Positions 15,620 through 25,120 of a DNA stretch of 64,000 nt are shown piece by piece (within the stretch, counting starts at the first letter, position 1; each line of letters opens with the position of its first letter). The notes under the pieces are model-generated. The model did not search any database, was not told where the DNA came from, and was given only the letters and a program-made list of their open reading frames with translations. The DNA comes from Escherichia phage Eryne. The DNA is taken from the sequence record PQ529420. One strand, written 5' to 3'. The translations under genes were made by a program, and so were the position numbers.

Positions 15620-16216
15620 TTACTCGAACCAATCGTCGCCAGCGCCAAACGCTTTAACTACATCGTAAATGTCAAGCCCAGCTTTACCCACACCATACGC
15701 TTTCAGTTTCCATTCGCTATCTTCTCGCACCAGGGAGGCAACGTGGCAAATGGTGTTACCTGCAAGTTCTGGAGCCAAGAAGTCAAAGTCCAGCAGTTCA
15801 ACATTACGTTCATCATCGAAGATTTTAAGGAAACCTTCGGTAGCGTGACCAAGGCGTTTCTTACCCGTTTCGTCATCAATAGTAATTACGAATGCAATTT
15901 CCTGTGCTTCAGCAGAGATATTATCCAGTGTAACATCAATCTGCTCCATCTGTCCTACACCATCACGAACATCTTCACCTGCAAAAGTAGAACGTTCAGG
16001 ATCAAATTTCTGCGCGTAGCACACCAGGTGACGAGGAGACAACAGTTCCGGCAGACCAGATGCATTGTGTCGGCAAATCAGAGCACTAACATCCAGATCC
16101 AGTTTTTCGTTAGATTTCCAAGAGAATTCCAGACGAATGCGTTTCAGTGCTGGTGCAATCTTTTTCAGAGAAACTTTTTCGCTAGAACCTTTTTTCAGGG
16201 AAATTTTCTGAGTCAT
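15620..16216 (-). CDS. terD: TerD-family stress protein
   Basis: 198 aa; ISLKKGSSEKVSLKK, DLDVSAL, IAFVITIDDE, EWKLKAYGVGKAG match TerD by memory of E. coli/Serratia TerD. Confidence 0.8.
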   Translation of the reverse strand: MTQKISLKKGSSEKVSLKKIAPALKRIRLEFSWKSNEKLDLDVSALICRHNASGLPELLSPRHLVCYAQKFDPERSTFAGEDVRDGVGQMEQIDVTLDNISAEAQEIAFVITIDDETGKKRLGHATEGFLKIFDDERNVELLDFDFLAPELAGNTICHVASLVREDSEWKLKAYGVGKAGLDIYDVVKAFGAGDDWFE

Positions 16217-16288
16217 AATTTATTATCTCCTTTGTTGTTAATTTACGTTGTCTATTTTACTAATCTTTTCTACAAAGTCAAGCGTTTT

Positions 16289-17083
16289 TTACGCTTTTGC
16301 TCCAAATTTTTTAACCCACTCACCAAACTCTTCGGATAGCAGTTTATCGTAAAGTTCTTCGTCAGACAAGGACAAATCTGCAATACCGATAAAATCAACA
16401 TTATCGTATTCTTTTGCCAAGTCTTTCAGGAATTTAAAGTTTGCATTACCTACACCAACCATAAACCAGTAAACAGGCGTATTGCGGTGTTTGTTCAGTA
16501 AGCTACGTACTGCTGAAGTATCCATGTTCTCCCCGTCAGTTTGGAAGAAAATCATTGCAGGAGTACGATCAACTTGTGCATCAGTATCTACAACCTGTTC
16601 TACAACAGTACGTGTTACTTCTACAAGTTCTTTTTTACCAGTTAGTTTAGCAAGGAAACCTTTAGCCGGAACTTCTTCATACTCAACGACTTCGCGTGTA
16701 ATATTTTTCATAGGTACACTACCGAAGTATGTATCATAGATCTCTTGCATTACTGGAGCATAAGCAGTACCACCGTTGATGCAAACATTAGACATGCAAG
16801 AGCCGACATAATCATCATACACATCAGCCGTTGCAGGAGGCAGTTCAAAAGAAGAACTATTGAAAGCCCACATGTCAATCTGTGCATTATCATCAAACTT
16901 CATACCAAACGGCAGCAGTTTACCTACAAAATCGCTAACAGTGCCATCACGATACAGCTCACACATACTACCCGAAATATCTAAGGCGCTACCTACACGA
17001 AGAACAACATCGTTAATCTTTTTCTTACGCAGGGATACAGTAAGAGTTTCTTGACGTTTTTTAAGACTGATTTTATTGGACAT
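16289..17083 (-). CDS. von Willebrand factor A (vWA/MIDAS) protein, TerY-like
   Basis: 264 aa; MIDAS DxSxS motif (LDISGSM); TerD-like N-terminal ISLKK...TVSL. Confidence 0.6.
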   Translation of the reverse strand: MSNKISLKKRQETLTVSLRKKKINDVVLRVGSALDISGSMCELYRDGTVSDFVGKLLPFGMKFDDNAQIDMWAFNSSSFELPPATADVYDDYVGSCMSNVCINGGTAYAPVMQEIYDTYFGSVPMKNITREVVEYEEVPAKGFLAKLTGKKELVEVTRTVVEQVVDTDAQVDRTPAMIFFQTDGENMDTSAVRSLLNKHRNTPVYWFMVGVGNANFKFLKDLAKEYDNVDFIGIADLSLSDEELYDKLLSEEFGEWVKKFGAKA

Positions 17084-17084
17084 A

Positions 17085-17354
17085 TTATTTCTCCTTTCTG
17101 ACTGTAATGTTAGTAACTTCTAAATCCACTTCTACCACTTCTGTATCATATAAAATACAGTTAAGTTGACCTCTTTGTGAACCGTTAAGACACATTGCTT
17201 GGTTTGTATTAACCTTAATAAACACTAAGTTTCTGAACGTATCTAAACCAGCATCTTGATAGGCAACATAATATACGAATGTATCACCTGTGTCAAGTTC
17301 TCCAAAACATTTAGGTTCATCTGATTTGTCGTCTTTGATATTAAATTTAAGCAC
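17085..17354 (-). CDS. hypothetical protein
   Basis: 89 aa ORF. Confidence 0.45.
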   Translation of the reverse strand: MLKFNIKDDKSDEPKCFGELDTGDTFVYYVAYQDAGLDTFRNLVFIKVNTNQAMCLNGSQRGQLNCILYDTEVVEVDLEVTNITVRKEK

Positions 17355-22746: not shown

Positions 22747-23463
22747 TTATTTCAGTTTGTAAACAATTACATTTAAACCTTTGTTCACTAGAGTTTCTTC
22801 GATCATAAGTTTTACAATATTCCAAGAACCTCCAGCCAAACCACAACCAAGCATTGGTAAACCTACAATTTTACCGCCTGAAGATACAACATCGTCTCCC
22901 ATACTATCTAACGCATTGTAGATAGCTTCATAATTCAGGTCACGCTTACCTTCCTCACGACGACTATAACCATATTGTCCATATAAATTATAAATTGTCA
23001 AATTGTTTTCTGTATACTTAGTAAACGTACCTAATTTTTTATAATCACCACGTTTAGTGGCACAATCTGCTTTAAACGCACCAGGCCACTTACTTTTAAT
23101 TTTTGGTGCAATACCACTACCCATAGTGCAAAAACAGTTACAGCAGTGTGCTATAGCGTCTATATCGCCTCTCTCGGCTGCTGCTAAAAGATCACCGTAT
23201 ACCTCAATGATACCTGCTGGATAACTTGTTACAATTTCATCTTCCCAGTACATTTTCTCTACACCACCGATCAGTGCAAAGTTTTGTGTGATGCGATCAT
23301 CAATATAATTAAGACCTGAAACATACACAGCATATTCATCCTGTGCTGTAATGCCTTGCACACGAATTCTTAAGACACCATCTTTATCTGTTGCTACACG
23401 CCCAAAATCTTTTTCTGTAATATTGGTGATAGGATCTCCGAAAGTCATTACTTTATTAGACAT
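22747..23463 (-). CDS. macro-domain-like protein (ADP-ribose binding/processing), putative
   Basis: Start at internal Met (MSNKV) with AAAGGGGA SD; GDIDAIAHCCNC...MGSGIAPKI resembles macro GDIT..DAIVNAAN..GGGV..AI; GLPMLGCGLAGG. Confidence 0.45.
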   Translation of the reverse strand: MSNKVMTFGDPITNITEKDFGRVATDKDGVLRIRVQGITAQDEYAVYVSGLNYIDDRITQNFALIGGVEKMYWEDEIVTSYPAGIIEVYGDLLAAAERGDIDAIAHCCNCFCTMGSGIAPKIKSKWPGAFKADCATKRGDYKKLGTFTKYTENNLTIYNLYGQYGYSRREEGKRDLNYEAIYNALDSMGDDVVSSGGKIVGLPMLGCGLAGGSWNIVKLMIEETLVNKGLNVIVYKLK

Positions 23464-24313
23464 AATAGTCCCCTTTAACATTAGATTTGTCGATAATGTT
23501 GCTTTCAAAAAATTGACGTAAGAAATCAAAGTTCTCTTTGTATTTTTCAATGTTATTGTAACCTTCTGCAAGGCAACCAAAGAACAGTTGTTCTACATAA
23601 TACAAAGGAAGTTGTGAAAGTGCAATTTTAAAATCAACTTCGCTTTGACTCATTAGATACTTAATAGGACGAACCAAACATTTAGCATCAGCTTCTTGCT
23701 TAATCATTTTAATAAAAGCTGCCAGATTATTGATATAGTTGAAGTTAAGTGCAGCTTCGGTGTTGGCTTCTGTACCTTCATACTTTGCAAAGTACAGGAA
23801 AAACGTATCGTTTTCAACACCTTCTTTGTCTAAAATTTCAATAAGTTTTTCTTCGTGTGTACCTGTAATATTAACATCATCAATGAAAATCAGATTTTTA
23901 TCGCCCCAAAAATCACGATTGATAGAGAAAGTATCACCATCGATCAAAGCCTTACGATCTTCTTTGCTAAGAAATCCATAATCATTGATATAGCTCACTT
24001 TACGATGAACGATATCCCACTCTACTGCTTTACCTCCTTTGATAGAGATTAGGTAGTTGAGGTGATCTACAAAATGTTCAGATAACACTGTAGCTGCATT
24101 TTTAACATAGTTATATGGAGATGGAATAACAACAAAACTTTCATTTACCAGTCGTTCTTCATATTTAGAAAAGAAACTTTCAGCCAGAATGCGTCCCATT
24201 CTTTTTGCTGCCTGGTTGCTGCCAAACTTTAGTTTGGAATAATCTGCAATGTTAAATTTTGCTTCCTTCAGGTTAGTAAAAGTATTAGCAAAATGTTGAA
24301 TTTGATTACGCAT
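23456..24313 (-). CDS. phosphoribosyltransferase (type I PRTase)
   Basis: 285 aa; PRPP-binding motif LIFIDDVNITGTHEE. Confidence 0.6.
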   Translation of the reverse strand: MRNQIQHFANTFTNLKEAKFNIADYSKLKFGSNQAAKRMGRILAESFFSKYEERLVNESFVVIPSPYNYVKNAATVLSEHFVDHLNYLISIKGGKAVEWDIVHRKVSYINDYGFLSKEDRKALIDGDTFSINRDFWGDKNLIFIDDVNITGTHEEKLIEILDKEGVENDTFFLYFAKYEGTEANTEAALNFNYINNLAAFIKMIKQEADAKCLVRPIKYLMSQSEVDFKIALSQLPLYYVEQLFFGCLAEGYNNIEKYKENFDFLRQFFESNIIDKSNVKGDYYV

Positions 24314-24962
24314 TAATAAGTTCCTCTTTTTTAAGTTTAGCCAACAAGTCTTCTGGATTAATAATATGACAGAACTTCATCCCTATGTCAACAGCTTTTC
24401 CATCATAAATCAAACTATCTCCAACGTGTAAAATCTCCTCTGGTGCGAGATCAAACGTCACCATTTCATCAAAAGAGAGTTTAAAAAACCTAGGATCTGG
24501 TTTACACAAGCAAAACTCGTCAGAAAAATGCATAAAGTCGAATGGTAATTTTGTTAAACCAGAATATACAGCTAAGAAACTACCTGGTACAAAATTAGTA
24601 TTACTCTTAATACTCAAAGAGTAGGTTGAACTTAGCTCTTCCAACTTCTTGCAAAGTTCAGGATTCAATGTTGGAGGATGTTTTATAAACATTGCTAAAC
24701 AGTCTCTTTTTAACCCATCCACTTTATCAAGATCAATGTTCAAACGAGTAGAAAGTGTTACCCAAGCATCCTTAGACGTCCCACAAATGCCTTTTTCTGC
24801 TTTTAAATCCAAGAGAGTTTTTACCTCTTTATATACGGTAGCTGCTTCTGCCTCAGAACAAGAGGCATACTCGGCAATAACCTTGTTGCGCTCTTCTGCA
24901 TACAAAGGGTTAGCAGTAATAAGAGTATTCCATACATCAAAAGAAATATGCTTAACAGTCAT
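24306..24962 (-). CDS. HAD-superfamily phosphatase/hydrolase
   Basis: Start at Met with GGAGGA SD (MTVKH); motif I ISFDVWNTL, C-terminal GDSLIYD. Confidence 0.6.
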   Translation of the reverse strand: MTVKHISFDVWNTLITANPLYAEERNKVIAEYASCSEAEAATVYKEVKTLLDLKAEKGICGTSKDAWVTLSTRLNIDLDKVDGLKRDCLAMFIKHPPTLNPELCKKLEELSSTYSLSIKSNTNFVPGSFLAVYSGLTKLPFDFMHFSDEFCLCKPDPRFFKLSFDEMVTFDLAPEEILHVGDSLIYDGKAVDIGMKFCHIINPEDLLAKLKKEELINA

Positions 24963-24964
24963 TT

Positions 24965-25120
24965 TTAATCCTCCGTCCAAAAGAATATCATCTGCTTAAT
25001 TTTATTGATTTCTTGATGTAGTAACTTTCCAGCATGTGATTGATCTTTAATATTGACAGCAAGAATTTCAAGTTCCGTTAGTTTTTCTTGGATAGCTTTA
25101 TATTCATCATCTGTAAGCAT
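24965..25120 (-). CDS. small coiled-coil protein (untracked ORF, approximate)
   Basis: ~51 aa, AAGGGGA SD; MLTDDEYKAIQEKLTELEIL... Confidence 0.35.
   Translation of the reverse strand: MLTDDEYKAIQEKLTELEILAVNIKDQSHAGKLLHQEINKIKQMIFFWTED

Follow-up and report, generated by a model that had tools for sequence, protein, structure and literature searches.

A conserved Ter-type module with an invariant HAD-PRTase_3 gene pair in phi92-like coliphages

Ter systems are found in bacteria as the terZABCDEF genes of the IncHI2 plasmid R478, Klebsiella and E. coli O157 and as the yceCDEFGH genes of B. subtilis, and the bacterial Ter stress-response network was reportedly analysed by Anantharaman, Iyer and Aravind in 2012. 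The presence of such genes on the minus strand of Escherichia phage Eryne (PQ529420), in the 64,000 nt stretch of DNA analysed here (the window), raises the question of what Ter proteins do in a virulent phage. The window belongs to a Justusliebigvirus, a phi92-like coliphage, and the block genes are all intact and sit among the replication and nucleotide-metabolism genes of this virulent myovirus. The block is 98–99% identical at the DNA level to phi92 gp172-gp187 and to >50 deposited phi92-like genomes. It is the counterpart of gp172-gp187, a Ter-type module conserved in phi92-like coliphages (Stephanstirmvirinae). Its parts are four Ter core genes (TerC, TelA, TerF-type vWA and TerD), an invariant HAD→PRTase_3 enzyme dyad and three small proteins of the envelope (Table 1), and it has homology to components of the bacterial Ter network. 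The seven domain assignments of a preliminary description (TerD, vWA, TelA, TerC, PRTase, HAD and macro, all on the minus strand) were each supported by Pfam, NCBIfam or PDB searches.

Table 1. Features of the Ter-type module and its borders, in window coordinates.
Feature	Position	Strand	Evidence and remarks
Terminator-like hairpin, upstream boundary	25342..25363	-	9-bp stem, T-rich tail; lies shortly after the AAA-ATPase gene that precedes the block
o67, 67 aa, first gene of unit	25132..25335	-	Directly upstream of HAD gene in relatives
o51, 51 aa	24965..25120	-	pN/pS 0–0.19
HAD-superfamily hydrolase, motif I FDVWNTL	24306..24962	-	Pfam PF00702, E 1e-5; NCBIfam HAD-IA; PDB 2om6
ComF-like type I phosphoribosyltransferase (PRTase_3)	23456..24313	-	Pfam PF15610, E 5e-41
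Macrodomain protein, TARG1/SCO6735/DarG class	22747..23463	-	Pfam PF01661, 30.8 bits (cutoff 22)
o68b, small membrane protein, 68 aa	22531..22737	-	Sequence; two hydrophobic segments
o82, small ORF	22267..22515	-	
Sigma-70-like promoter TTGACT-16-TATAGT, then GC-rich hairpin in short terC 5' leader	22208..22266	-	Consensus match
TerC-family integral membrane protein	21212..22189	-	Pfam PF03741, E 1e-38
o68a, small single-pass membrane protein, 68 aa	20966..21172	-	Sequence; 44–49% in related genera
Lipoprotein	20389..20979	-	Signal peptide and lipobox LVGC, Asp at +2
283-aa protein beside telA	19502..20353	-	PHROG 27504
TelA-family protein	18330..19433	-	Pfam PF05816, E 8e-34, residues 57–362; PHROG 5890
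o66 and o77, two small ORFs	17910..18316	-	
o187	17347..17910	-	Widespread mobile-element family
o89, small ORF	17085..17354	-	Duplicated in phAPEC8; absent in L033, L035
TerF-type vWA protein	16289..17083	-	Pfam PF10138, E 1e-38
Sigma-70-like promoter TTGACT-16-TAAAAT upstream of terD	16254..16281	-	Consensus match only
TerD-domain protein	15620..16216	-	Pfam PF02342, E 5e-28; PDB 2kxt 9e-15, also 3ibz
Terminator-like GC hairpin, downstream boundary	15595..15610	-	Directly after terD

Minus-strand hairpins bracket the block at 25363–25342 and 15610–15595, and thus the natural unit also takes in the two small ORFs at 24965–25335. The upstream hairpin coincides with a terminator in the annotation of phage Paula, and the promoter preceding terC with a host-type promoter in that of phAPEC8, with all promoter and terminator calls being consensus matches that are equalled in number in shuffled sequence. 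No riboswitch was matched in the terC leader in an Rfam search. The coordinates given previously needed only minor correction, following the Paula annotation: the most likely start codon of the HAD gene is ATG 24962 rather than TTG 24980, and the macrodomain gene, with its start at 23463, overlaps the PRTase stop.

The block is kept in the same order in every sampled member of the two genera Justusliebigvirus and Phapecoctavirus, and the related phages are fully syntenic rather than having the genes scattered. Gene order is also shared by Phapecoctavirus and IMG/VR relatives with protein identities of 35–81%, the range found for phAPEC8 gp048-gp066. The number of records per identity band agrees between genes (TerD 54+77, TelA 54+77, PRTase 53+78), showing that all parts are retained together in both genera. 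Values of pN/pS were 0.06–0.09 over the block and 0.00–0.06 for the four Ter genes, and the block is under strong purifying selection.

Within the Ter core, the MIDAS motif of the vWA protein is intact (DISGS ... T ... TDG), and the acidic loop, which binds Ca2+ in Klebsiella TerD, is degenerate in the phage TerD (GEDVRDGVGQMEQ versus GDNxTGxGDGDDE). A PDB sequence search with TelA did not identify a solved structural relative. TerC scored 322.8 bits (cutoff 246.4) against the NCBIfam model TIGR03718, named 'TerC/Alx family metal homeostasis membrane protein', and is 46–49% identical to plasmid TerC and 37% to E. coli Alx. The latter is annotated as an Mn2+ exporter, and this suggests an alternative in which the module serves phage metal homeostasis, with TerC as Mn2+/Zn2+/Ca2+ exporter or metalation factor, and TerD and the MIDAS-containing vWA protein as cation-binding partners. 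We consider this unlikely, and give no better odds to its extension that the module adjusts the divalent cations of the infected cell or loads exported phage proteins (such as a SleB-like hydrolase), without excluding competitors. The intact MIDAS motif is consistent with a role in metal handling, as are the contribution of terC to Zn and Mn resistance in K. pneumoniae, where the operon is Zn-inducible (PMC12054061), the P-type cation ATPase that comes after the dyad in the Bacteroidota locus L029, and the presence of a Hydrolase_2 gene near the Ter genes in both the window and the distant contig L009. The degenerate Ca2+ loop of TerD argues against it, as does the lack, before the phage terC, of the Mn riboswitch that many TerC/Alx genes have; TerC was also dispensable for metal stress in one K. 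pneumoniae study (PMC9933665), and the link to the PRTase-HAD dyad is left unexplained. The window itself encodes a SleB-like cell-wall hydrolase with a signal peptide at 14363–14872.

The phage module and the bacterial Ter network have homologous TerD, TerC, TelA and vWA-TerF proteins in common, as well as the association with PRTase and HAD genes, which was confirmed in the Bacteroidota loci L029 and L030. In contrast to the bacterial systems, which are carried on plasmids or chromosomes, the module of this virulent phage has a single TerD, lacks a riboswitch and TerY-PP2C-kinase, and has its own phage-specific small membrane proteins. Profile searches of the block ORFs did not identify TerB or additional TerD paralogues, nor were the ATP-grasp, C-C lyase and second PRTase enzymes that complete the biosynthetic set in bacteria found among the ORFs, and PADLOC defence models recognised none of the Ter proteins. 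The labels 'tellurite resistance' given by depositors and PHROGs would fit a host-benefit 'moron' cassette, conferring tellurite or xenobiotic resistance on the infected or carrier cell, and xenobiotic resistance during pseudolysogeny has been named as a secondary possibility (PMC7824862). We regard this as very improbable, given the location among replication and nucleotide-metabolism genes of a virulent myovirus and the lack of TerB and of the TerZ/A/E paralogues of tellurite-resistance operons; a comparable incomplete set was considered unlikely to give resistance to tellurium by the authors of the PhiPsa374 study (PMC9796965).

The HAD gene lies upstream of the PRTase_3 gene on the same strand in all 43 of the 43 PRTase_3-bearing loci examined, and the two are adjacent or overlapping except in L009, where one gene lies between them. 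In the PRTase_3 protein the PRPP loop (DDVNITGTHE) is intact, and a helical domain at the C-terminus is additional to ComFC and classical type I PRTases. The protein showed no match in a sequence-level PDB search and is only 12% identical to ComFC (H. pylori ComF, PDB 7p0h), and its gene has a HAD gene as partner in every case, rather than a ComFA helicase. The HAD protein scored 26.2 bits with PF00702, slightly below the cutoff of 26.4, with the assignment backed by several NCBIfam HAD-IA models and by PDB 2om6 (E 4e-8), which shares the FDVWNTL motif. Alignment of motif I over eight lineages showed that the nucleophile Asp is kept and that the Asp+2 general acid is replaced by a conserved Trp. 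The earlier term 'HAD phosphatase' is correct for the fold only; phosphatase activity is thus unproven and simple nucleotide dephosphorylation is not assured.

In phage contigs, Ter cores contain or flank the dyad in at least five gene orders (L036/L042; L038/L009; L044; L045/L007/L008; and the Stephanstirmvirinae type), and is repeatedly embedded between Ter genes, as in TerC-HAD-PRT-TerD and TelA-HAD-PRT-vWA. The dyad is also found inside Bacteroidota TerD/TerY-PP2C-kinase and TerD/TerC clusters, so that the expected company of PRTase and HAD genes with Ter genes is borne out in independent phage lineages and in Bacteroidota. Loci with no Ter gene inside 10 kb of the dyad occur in about seven phage lineages and in Rhizobiaceae, and the dyad stands alone in phages of Xanthomonas, Rhizobium and Caulobacter, in several IMG/VR contigs and on rhizobial replicons; it is therefore able to work on its own. 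This would be expected if the parts were independent neighbours, with the dyad a nucleotide-pool or counter-defence device, the macrodomain reversing host ADP-ribosylation (for instance by DarT), and the Ter genes separate. Such an arrangement is improbable in our view, as is the associated proposal that a self-contained dyad would make or destroy a nucleotide-like molecule, because the dyad is embedded between Ter genes in differing orders and in Bacteroidota Ter clusters, and all parts are kept together in both genera. This embedding is hard to explain without functional coupling.

For the macrodomain, independence is probable. Its closest relatives are the TARG1, SCO6735 and DarG macrodomains, with matches to DarG in PADLOC (1.5e-13) and NCBIfam (8e-13) for the macro part only, and to PDB 5e3b, 2fg1, TARG1 and DarG in structure databases; an 85-aa N-terminal extension is absent in phAPEC8. 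It adjoins the dyad only in loci of the Stephanstirmvirinae type, found in the two genera and in the metagenomic relatives nearest to them, and homologues in phiPsa267 are located near NamPT and PRPP-synthetase genes. Both its class and this limited adjacency suggest a separate function, probably independent of the Ter genes, and count in favour of the reading as independent neighbours.

As described before, a lipoprotein and two 68-aa hydrophobic proteins are interspersed, and together with TerC these are co-conserved across sub-lineages. The Asp at +2 of the lipobox predicts inner-membrane retention of the lipoprotein, the mature part of which is of low complexity (Q/S/T/G-rich) and 35–51% conserved in related genera. 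The o68b protein is kept at 43–60% in phAPEC8, L033, L035 and L037, with zero nonsynonymous changes in three comparisons. The o67 gene, without a match in a Pfam search, is upstream of HAD also in phAPEC8, L016, L033, L035 and L037 (46–52% identity), and the 283-aa neighbour of TelA, likewise without a Pfam match, is poorly conserved (30–38% partial matches in related genera). For o187, neither a Pfam entry nor a known fold was found for the family; it is absent or replaced in L032, L033 and L035, and is an inserted, independent gene that is not specific to Ter loci.

The novelty implied in the preliminary description is not supported, as a Ter module of putative function is already known in phages. 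The genes are annotated in phi92 and relatives (as stress protein/TerD, TelA/tellurite resistance, TerC, orotate-PRTase-like, hydrolase and phosphatase/macrodomain), attention was drawn to phi92 gp172/173/178 in 2015 (PMC4690881), and in 2021 Iyer, Anantharaman, Krishnan, Burroughs and Aravind reported phage Ter systems that include PRTase and HAD (PMC7824862). Justusliebigvirus and Phapecoctavirus blocks represent the same locus without substantial difference, with variation in the small accessory ORFs o187 and o89. The systems described in 2021, including Acinetobacter phage ME3 (Ter with PRTases and HAD, compared here by description) and Caulobacter jumbo phages (TerD, TerC, TerF and TelA), have the same components (TerD, TerC, TerF-type vWA, TelA, PRTase and HAD) and the same proposed logic, which was extended to 'certain other related smaller tailed phages' (PMC7824862). 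Unlike the jumbo phages, Eryne has a genome of ~146 kb, and its dyad adjoins the Ter core directly, whereas that of CcrColossus lies ~27 kb from terD. The virulent Otagovirus myoviruses (PhiPsa374-like) have the same four-gene core (telA-terF-terC-terD) and a macrodomain gene ~3 kb away (PMC9796965), but lack the HAD-PRTase_3 dyad, have NamPT and PRPP synthetase nearby instead, and their proteins are only 23–26% identical to those of Eryne. What is newly seen here is that HAD→PRTase_3, a pair predicted to make a small ribose compound, is an invariant dyad across all 43 PRTase_3-bearing loci examined, occurring with Ter genes in at least five phage gene orders and in Bacteroidota, and alone in other phages and in Rhizobiaceae.

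As the most likely role we tentatively favour protection of the infected cell's envelope or exclusion of superinfecting phages, the idea of superinfection exclusion by phage Ter systems coming from PMC7824862. The R478 ter cluster inhibits phages and makes cells resistant to colicins (Whelan 1995, cited in both PMC9796965 and PMC12054061), deletion of terC in K. pneumoniae resulted in larger plaques and reduced Zn/Mn resistance (PMC12054061), and cells need TerC to tolerate polymyxin B and cetylpyridinium chloride (PMC9933665). Points against this reading are the missing TerB, TerD paralogues and biosynthetic enzymes, the degenerate TerD loop and the HAD without Asp+2, and further the lone dyads, the shuffled-level promoter counts and the lack of PADLOC recognition. 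In the envelope role that we favour, the module would be transcribed in the infected cell, probably early, since matches to the host-type promoter consensus precede terC and terD. The cytoplasmic membrane would house TerC, the lipoprotein retained there and both small membrane proteins, with TelA, the MIDAS-containing vWA protein and TerD assembling beneath it in a divalent-cation-dependent manner. The PRTase may join a base or amine to PRPP, and the HAD protein may process the product to a small ribosyl compound that the Ter proteins would use as ligand or signal, with the adjacent macrodomain most likely a separate ADP-ribose-removing enzyme. The Ter complex would then condition the envelope of the infected cell to tolerate pore-forming or membrane-damaging insults and to block the entry of rival phages, paralleling bacterial ter operons with their phenotypes in phage inhibition, colicin resistance and envelope stress.

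Open reading frames (ORFs) are closely packed on the minus strand from 15620 to 24980, and the preliminary description had named TerD, vWA, TelA, TerC, phosphoribosyltransferase (PRTase), HAD and macro domains among them. Profile searches confirmed every one of these (see table), and the observation of a Ter-type block is therefore correct and well past chance. Interspersed with these genes are three envelope proteins, namely two 68-aa hydrophobic proteins and a lipoprotein with the lipobox LVGC and Asp at +2, a residue which in E. coli predicts retention in the inner membrane. 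Several small ORFs had no family match in the profile searches, and o51 and o67 (block ORFs are named by their length in aa) gave no relevant match. The block is 98–99% identical over its full length to that of >50 deposited Justusliebigvirus phages (phi92, Paula, muut, VEcB, alia and others), and corresponds to phi92 gp172–gp187.

Features of the Ter-type block and its surroundings in the phage Eryne sequence
Feature	Coordinates	Strand	Evidence or position
Two adjacent ORFs (228 and 187 aa)	12355-13614	-	downstream of block
SleB-type cell-wall hydrolase	14363-14872	-	PF07486, E 6.5e-20
Terminator-like hairpin	15610-15595	-	directly after terD
TerD	15620-16216	-	PF02342, E 5e-28
Sigma-70-like promoter match	16281-16254		intergenic, before terD; consensus match only
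TerF-type vWA protein	16289-17083	-	PF10138, E 1e-38
o187	17347-17910	-	phi92 gp175
TelA	18330-19433	-	PF05816, E 8e-34
TerC	21212-22189	-	PF03741, E 1e-38
Perfect 8-bp GC-rich hairpin, GCGGAGGA-nnn-TCCTCCGC	22208-22226		terC leader, between promoter-like site and ribosome-binding site
Sigma-70-like promoter match	22266-22239		intergenic, before terC; consensus match only
Macrodomain	22747-23463	-	PF01661, 30.8 bits vs cutoff 22
'ComF-like' PRTase_3	23456-24313	-	PF15610, E 5e-41
HAD-fold hydrolase	24306-24962	-	PF00702, E 1e-5
Two small ORFs	24965-25335		inside unit 15595-25363
Terminator-like hairpin	25363-25342	-	after preceding AAA-ATPase gene

The two terminator-like hairpins enclose a natural unit of 15595-25363, which thus includes two more small ORFs. 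The total number of promoter and terminator sites in our scan was equal to that in shuffled sequence, and the sites in the table were picked by their intergenic position and agreement with depositors' annotation and are only suggestive; the depositors of the Phapecoctavirus phage phAPEC8 annotated a host-type promoter at the equivalent spot before terC. The hairpin in the short (~45 nt) terC leader does not resemble an obvious terminator, since the coding strand has no T-tract, and may be a stabiliser or regulatory element. No tRNA genes were found in the 64-kb window.

As the preliminary description had proposed, the block lies in a replication and nucleotide-metabolism setting, flanked on one side by genes for an anaerobic ribonucleotide reductase and on the other by a T7-like primase/helicase. 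It is syntenic in related phages: the order HAD, PRTase, macro, o68b, TerC, o68a, lipoprotein, o283, TelA, o66, vWA, TerD is common to the block, phAPEC8 and three IMG/VR relatives, at 35–81% protein identity. In the phage collection, the records per identity band numbered 54 and 77 for both TerD and TelA, and 53 and 78 for the PRTase, and no loss of a part is apparent in any sampled phage of the two genera. Comparison with three close relatives gave a pN/pS of 0.06–0.09 for the whole block, 0.00–0.06 for the four Ter genes, ~0.05 for the PRTase and 0.02–0.10 for the HAD gene. Two ORFs, o187 and o89, are absent or replaced in some relatives.

The ORF o187 has a ~140-aa N-terminal domain belonging to a strongly conserved family (43–74% identity across 135 clusters) with the invariants MGCFSxxCK, Y43-x-SYG (G41, Y43, S45, Y46, G47), DPxQGWG and PxH. 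This family has no Pfam entry, and the AlphaFold2 model of o187 was confident (pLDDT 83, core above 90) and matched no known fold. We considered o187 as a hidden Ter component and rejected this, as members of the family are found in phages and mobile elements that are unrelated and have no Ter genes, and the gene is missing from some relatives. Outside the block, the SleB-type hydrolase has a signal-like N terminus and is encoded two genes downstream of terD; a Hydrolase_2 gene directly follows telA in a distant 143-kb contig (L009; L-numbers denote our comparison loci). Downstream of the block lie the two adjacent ORFs; at the matching end of its own region, phAPEC8 has an annotated glycosyltransferase. 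Some phage records labelled Campylobacter, Serratia, Acinetobacter or Pseudomonas (MG065639, MG065645, MG065656, MG065689, MG065650, OK210077, OP562383 and OR584014) match E. coli Justusliebigvirus or Phapecoctavirus sequences at the protein or DNA level. The Campylobacter records MG065639, MG065645, MG065656 and MG065689 have 98% DNA identity to the block, the PRTase of Serratia phage KKP_3264 is 98.6% identical, and the other oddly labelled records are at the levels of Phapecoctavirus coliphages (TerD 80.8%, PRTase 64–65%), which suggests mislabelled hosts or contaminant phages.

Like the bacterial Ter stress-response network, the block neighbourhood contains TerD, TerC, TelA and a TerF-type vWA protein, together with linked genes for a PRTase and a HAD enzyme of the 'biosynthetic' kind. 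The MIDAS of the vWA protein is intact, with the DxSxS, T and D residues present in the alignment. The alignment of TerD with its Klebsiella counterpart (PDB 2kxt, E 9e-15) runs from end to end, with the acidic loop reading GEDVRDGVGQMEQ in both the block and phAPEC8 versus the canonical GDNxTGxGDGDDE, which is kept in the TerDs of other phages and Bacteroidota; with the loop degenerate here and canonical elsewhere, one Ca2+ site may have been lost. A PDB sequence search with TelA gave nothing useful. Unlike the classical terZABCDE(F) operon, which has TerB and several TerD paralogues (TerZ, A, D, E), the block has a single ORF matching TerD, and none of the 18 ORFs scanned matched a TerB profile. 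The full Ter-associated metabolite pathway, reportedly set out by Anantharaman et al. in 2012, is said to comprise an ATP-grasp enzyme, two PRTases, a HAD enzyme and a C-C lyase, and no Pfam match to an ATP-grasp, a second PRTase or a C-C bond lyase was found among the block ORFs. By its predicted gene content, the block is an abbreviated Ter system and not a classical terZABCDEF operon.

The block TerC scores 322.8 bits with the NCBIfam TerC/Alx family model TIGR03718 (curated cutoff 246.4), and is 46–49% identical to TerC of plasmid ter operons versus 37% to the host Mn exporter Alx. Derivation from the host alx gene was rejected on these identities, which place the protein in the Ter lineage rather than with a host housekeeping gene. 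The Mn2+ riboswitch (yybP-ykoY) common upstream of riboswitch-controlled TerC/Alx genes is absent before the block terC, with no Rfam family of any kind at E≤1 in 14000-27000. A function of the block in metal homeostasis or metalation, a subject touched by bacterial ter data on Zn/Mn resistance that were reported together with data on plaque size (PMC12054061), seems unlikely to us.

In the HAD protein, the nucleophile Asp (motif I, FD(10)VWNTL), the Ser/Thr of motif II, the Lys of motif III and the acidic pair of motif IV are all present, and FD(10)VWNTL, SxKSNTN, KP and GDSxxYD are conserved in an alignment across 8 lineages. Asp at +2 from the nucleophile serves as general acid/base in HAD phosphatases and mutases, and this residue is Trp in 8/8 aligned homologues. 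The nearest solved protein, an uncharacterised archaeal protein of P. horikoshii (PDB 2om6), likewise has FDVWNTL with Trp at +2. Because the general acid is replaced, the term 'HAD phosphatase' used in the preliminary description holds for the predicted fold and not for the chemistry. The protein also matches several NCBIfam HAD-IA models, each below its curated cutoff. The HAD partners of PRTase_3 carry FDxW(N/K/G/D)TL (the block HAD, L002-L009 and L030), which may mark a subfamily of HAD proteins whose chemistry is unusual or not that of a phosphatase. The PRTase_3 has a type I PRTase fold by sequence, with a PRPP-binding acidic loop; a PDB sequence search found nothing useful, with no solved or characterised close relative.

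The HAD gene was located upstream of PRTase_3, on the same strand, in every recovered locus with a PRTase_3 gene, the sample comprising phage genomes, IMG/VR contigs, metagenomic contigs, Rhizobiaceae replicons and Bacteroidota metagenome-assembled genomes (MAGs). The two genes are adjacent and often overlap, with L009 as the sole exception (one gene between them). In phage contigs, this HAD–PRTase_3 dyad is found within or next to a Ter core, and the genes are arranged in at least five different ways: TelA-vWA...TerC-HAD-PRT-TerD (L036, L042), TerC-vWA-TerD-TerD-TelA-HAD-PRT (L038, and L009 with one gene inserted), TelA-HAD-PRT-vWA-TerC-TerD (L044), TerC-TerD-vWA-HAD-PRT (L045, L007, L008) and the Stephanstirmvirinae order. 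It is also embedded in the Ter clusters of two Bacteroidota MAGs, as TerDx3-vWA-TerY-PP2C-kinase-HAD-PRT-P-type ATPase and TerD-OmpA-like-HAD-PRT-OmpA-like-TerC. The expectation that PRTase and HAD genes accompany Ter genes was thus borne out, and adjacency kept despite repeated rearrangement is a classical signature from which functional coupling is predicted.

Loci with a dyad but no Ter gene within 10 kb came from Xanthomonas phage XaC1, CcrColossus (a Caulobacter phage), Rhizobium phages, several contigs of IMG/VR and the plasmids and chromosomes of rhizobia; judging from these gene neighbourhoods, the dyad must therefore be able to function alone. Among these, many Rhizobiaceae (Rhizobium, Sinorhizobium and Ensifer chromosomes and plasmids; L017-L028, L031) carry the dyad by itself, located on pRL10 at 107669-109142, ~0.9 kb from repA; rhizobiophages (L004) also have a Ter-less dyad, and there may have been exchange between these phages and their hosts. 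Recognition of HAD–PRTase_3 as an invariant, partly autonomous dyad is the main addition of the present work.

The block macrodomain most closely resembles SCO6735, BT1257, human TARG1 and the macro half of DarG (PDB matches 5e3b, 3e-15; 2fg1, 4e-15; TARG1, 3e-10; DarG 5m31, 9e-4). Enzymes of this class strip ADP-ribose from macromolecules or act on ADP-ribose derivatives. With the PADLOC 2.0 defence models, the macrodomain matched DarG, and there was no match for TerD, vWA, TelA, TerC, PRTase or HAD. A role as DarG antitoxin was rejected, since the match to the NCBIfam DarG model (48 bits, cutoff 250) covers only positions 4–147 of 338 and thus the macro domain alone, lacking the C-terminal DarT-binding half of DarG, and no darT-like gene is annotated beside it. 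The protein has an 85-aa N-terminal extension which is missing from phAPEC8. Outside Stephanstirmvirinae-type loci (Justusliebigvirus, Phapecoctavirus and their closest metagenomic relatives) the macro gene is not next to the dyad, with macro genes a few kb away in XaC1, L036 and phiPsa267. The macrodomain is thus a neighbour of the Ter genes but probably has a separate function. In the Otagovirus phiPsa267 (L006, 1-3672), a macrodomain gene is found within the few kb that separate the Ter core from the genes for NamPT and PRPP synthetase, which hints at a link of the macro gene to NAD/ADP-ribose metabolism rather than Ter function. The Ter-less dyads and the separable macro gene both bear on an alternative in which the block consists of independent neighbouring units, the dyad acting as a nucleotide or counter-defence device and the macrodomain as an ADP-ribose eraser; with the dyad recurring beside Ter genes in so many orders, we regard this as improbable.

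The observation and its interpretation both hold up, but the block itself is not new, as depositors had annotated its genes (stress protein/TerD, tellurite resistance/TelA, TerC, putative orotate PRTase, hydrolase and phosphatase/macrodomain) and the phage Ter concept is already in print. A 2015 metagenomic study labelled phi92 gp172, gp173 and gp178 as TerD, TerD and tellurite-resistance proteins (PMC4690881), and a 2021 jumbo-phage comparison described phage Ter systems, one with PRTases and HAD, also in 'certain other related smaller tailed phages', gave the parts the same roles and proposed action against superinfecting phages (PMC7824862). Our literature search found no experiment on any phage Ter gene and no experimental study of the block genes in Stephanstirmvirinae. 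The phenotypes of tellurite resistance, phage inhibition and colicin resistance come only from bacterial ter operons (for the latter two Whelan 1995, as cited in PMC9796965 and PMC12054061), for which tolerance of membrane-active agents is also described (PMC9933665). In PhiPsa374, a virulent Pseudomonas phage with terC/terD/terF/telA, tellurium resistance was thought unlikely (PMC9796965), and a resistance cassette for the benefit of the host is, in our view, a barely credible explanation of the block.

We tentatively favour, as the most likely mechanism, an envelope-protection or exclusion complex with a ribosyl ligand or signal made by the dyad. The block genes would be transcribed in the infected cell, probably early, because both terC and terD have a host-type promoter match ahead of them. 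TerC, TelA, vWA and TerD, with the lipoprotein and the small membrane proteins, would form a cation-dependent complex associated with the inner membrane. This complex would guard the infected cell's envelope and impede competing phages and pore-formers, with the dyad supplying a ribosyl small molecule as ligand or signal. In a bolder version, which we consider quite unlikely, the phage captured a bacterial immune or stress module and reversed its use: the dyad would make a dedicated ribosyl compound by HAD chemistry that is non-canonical since Trp stands in place of the Asp+2 general acid, and this product would switch on the TerC-TelA-vWA-TerD envelope complex to shield the infected cell's inner membrane against pore-forming abortive-infection effectors, colicins and superinfecting phages.

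Ter clusters, for which a nucleoside-like product is predicted, are widespread in pathogens, and their link to phage inhibition and colicin resistance is ~30 years old. To this the present analysis adds an invariant and partly autonomous dyad, a HAD protein with a non-canonical motif lacking the phosphatase general acid, a degenerate TerD loop and a macrodomain that is probably separate in function. Should the captured-module version be true, it would represent a general device for anti-Abi action or superinfection immunity, and would give genetics its first tractable access to the role of Ter systems. With a compact Ter version of ~9.7 kb universally kept in easily grown virulent E. coli phages, the worth of the block lies in giving experiments a way into the Ter mechanism.
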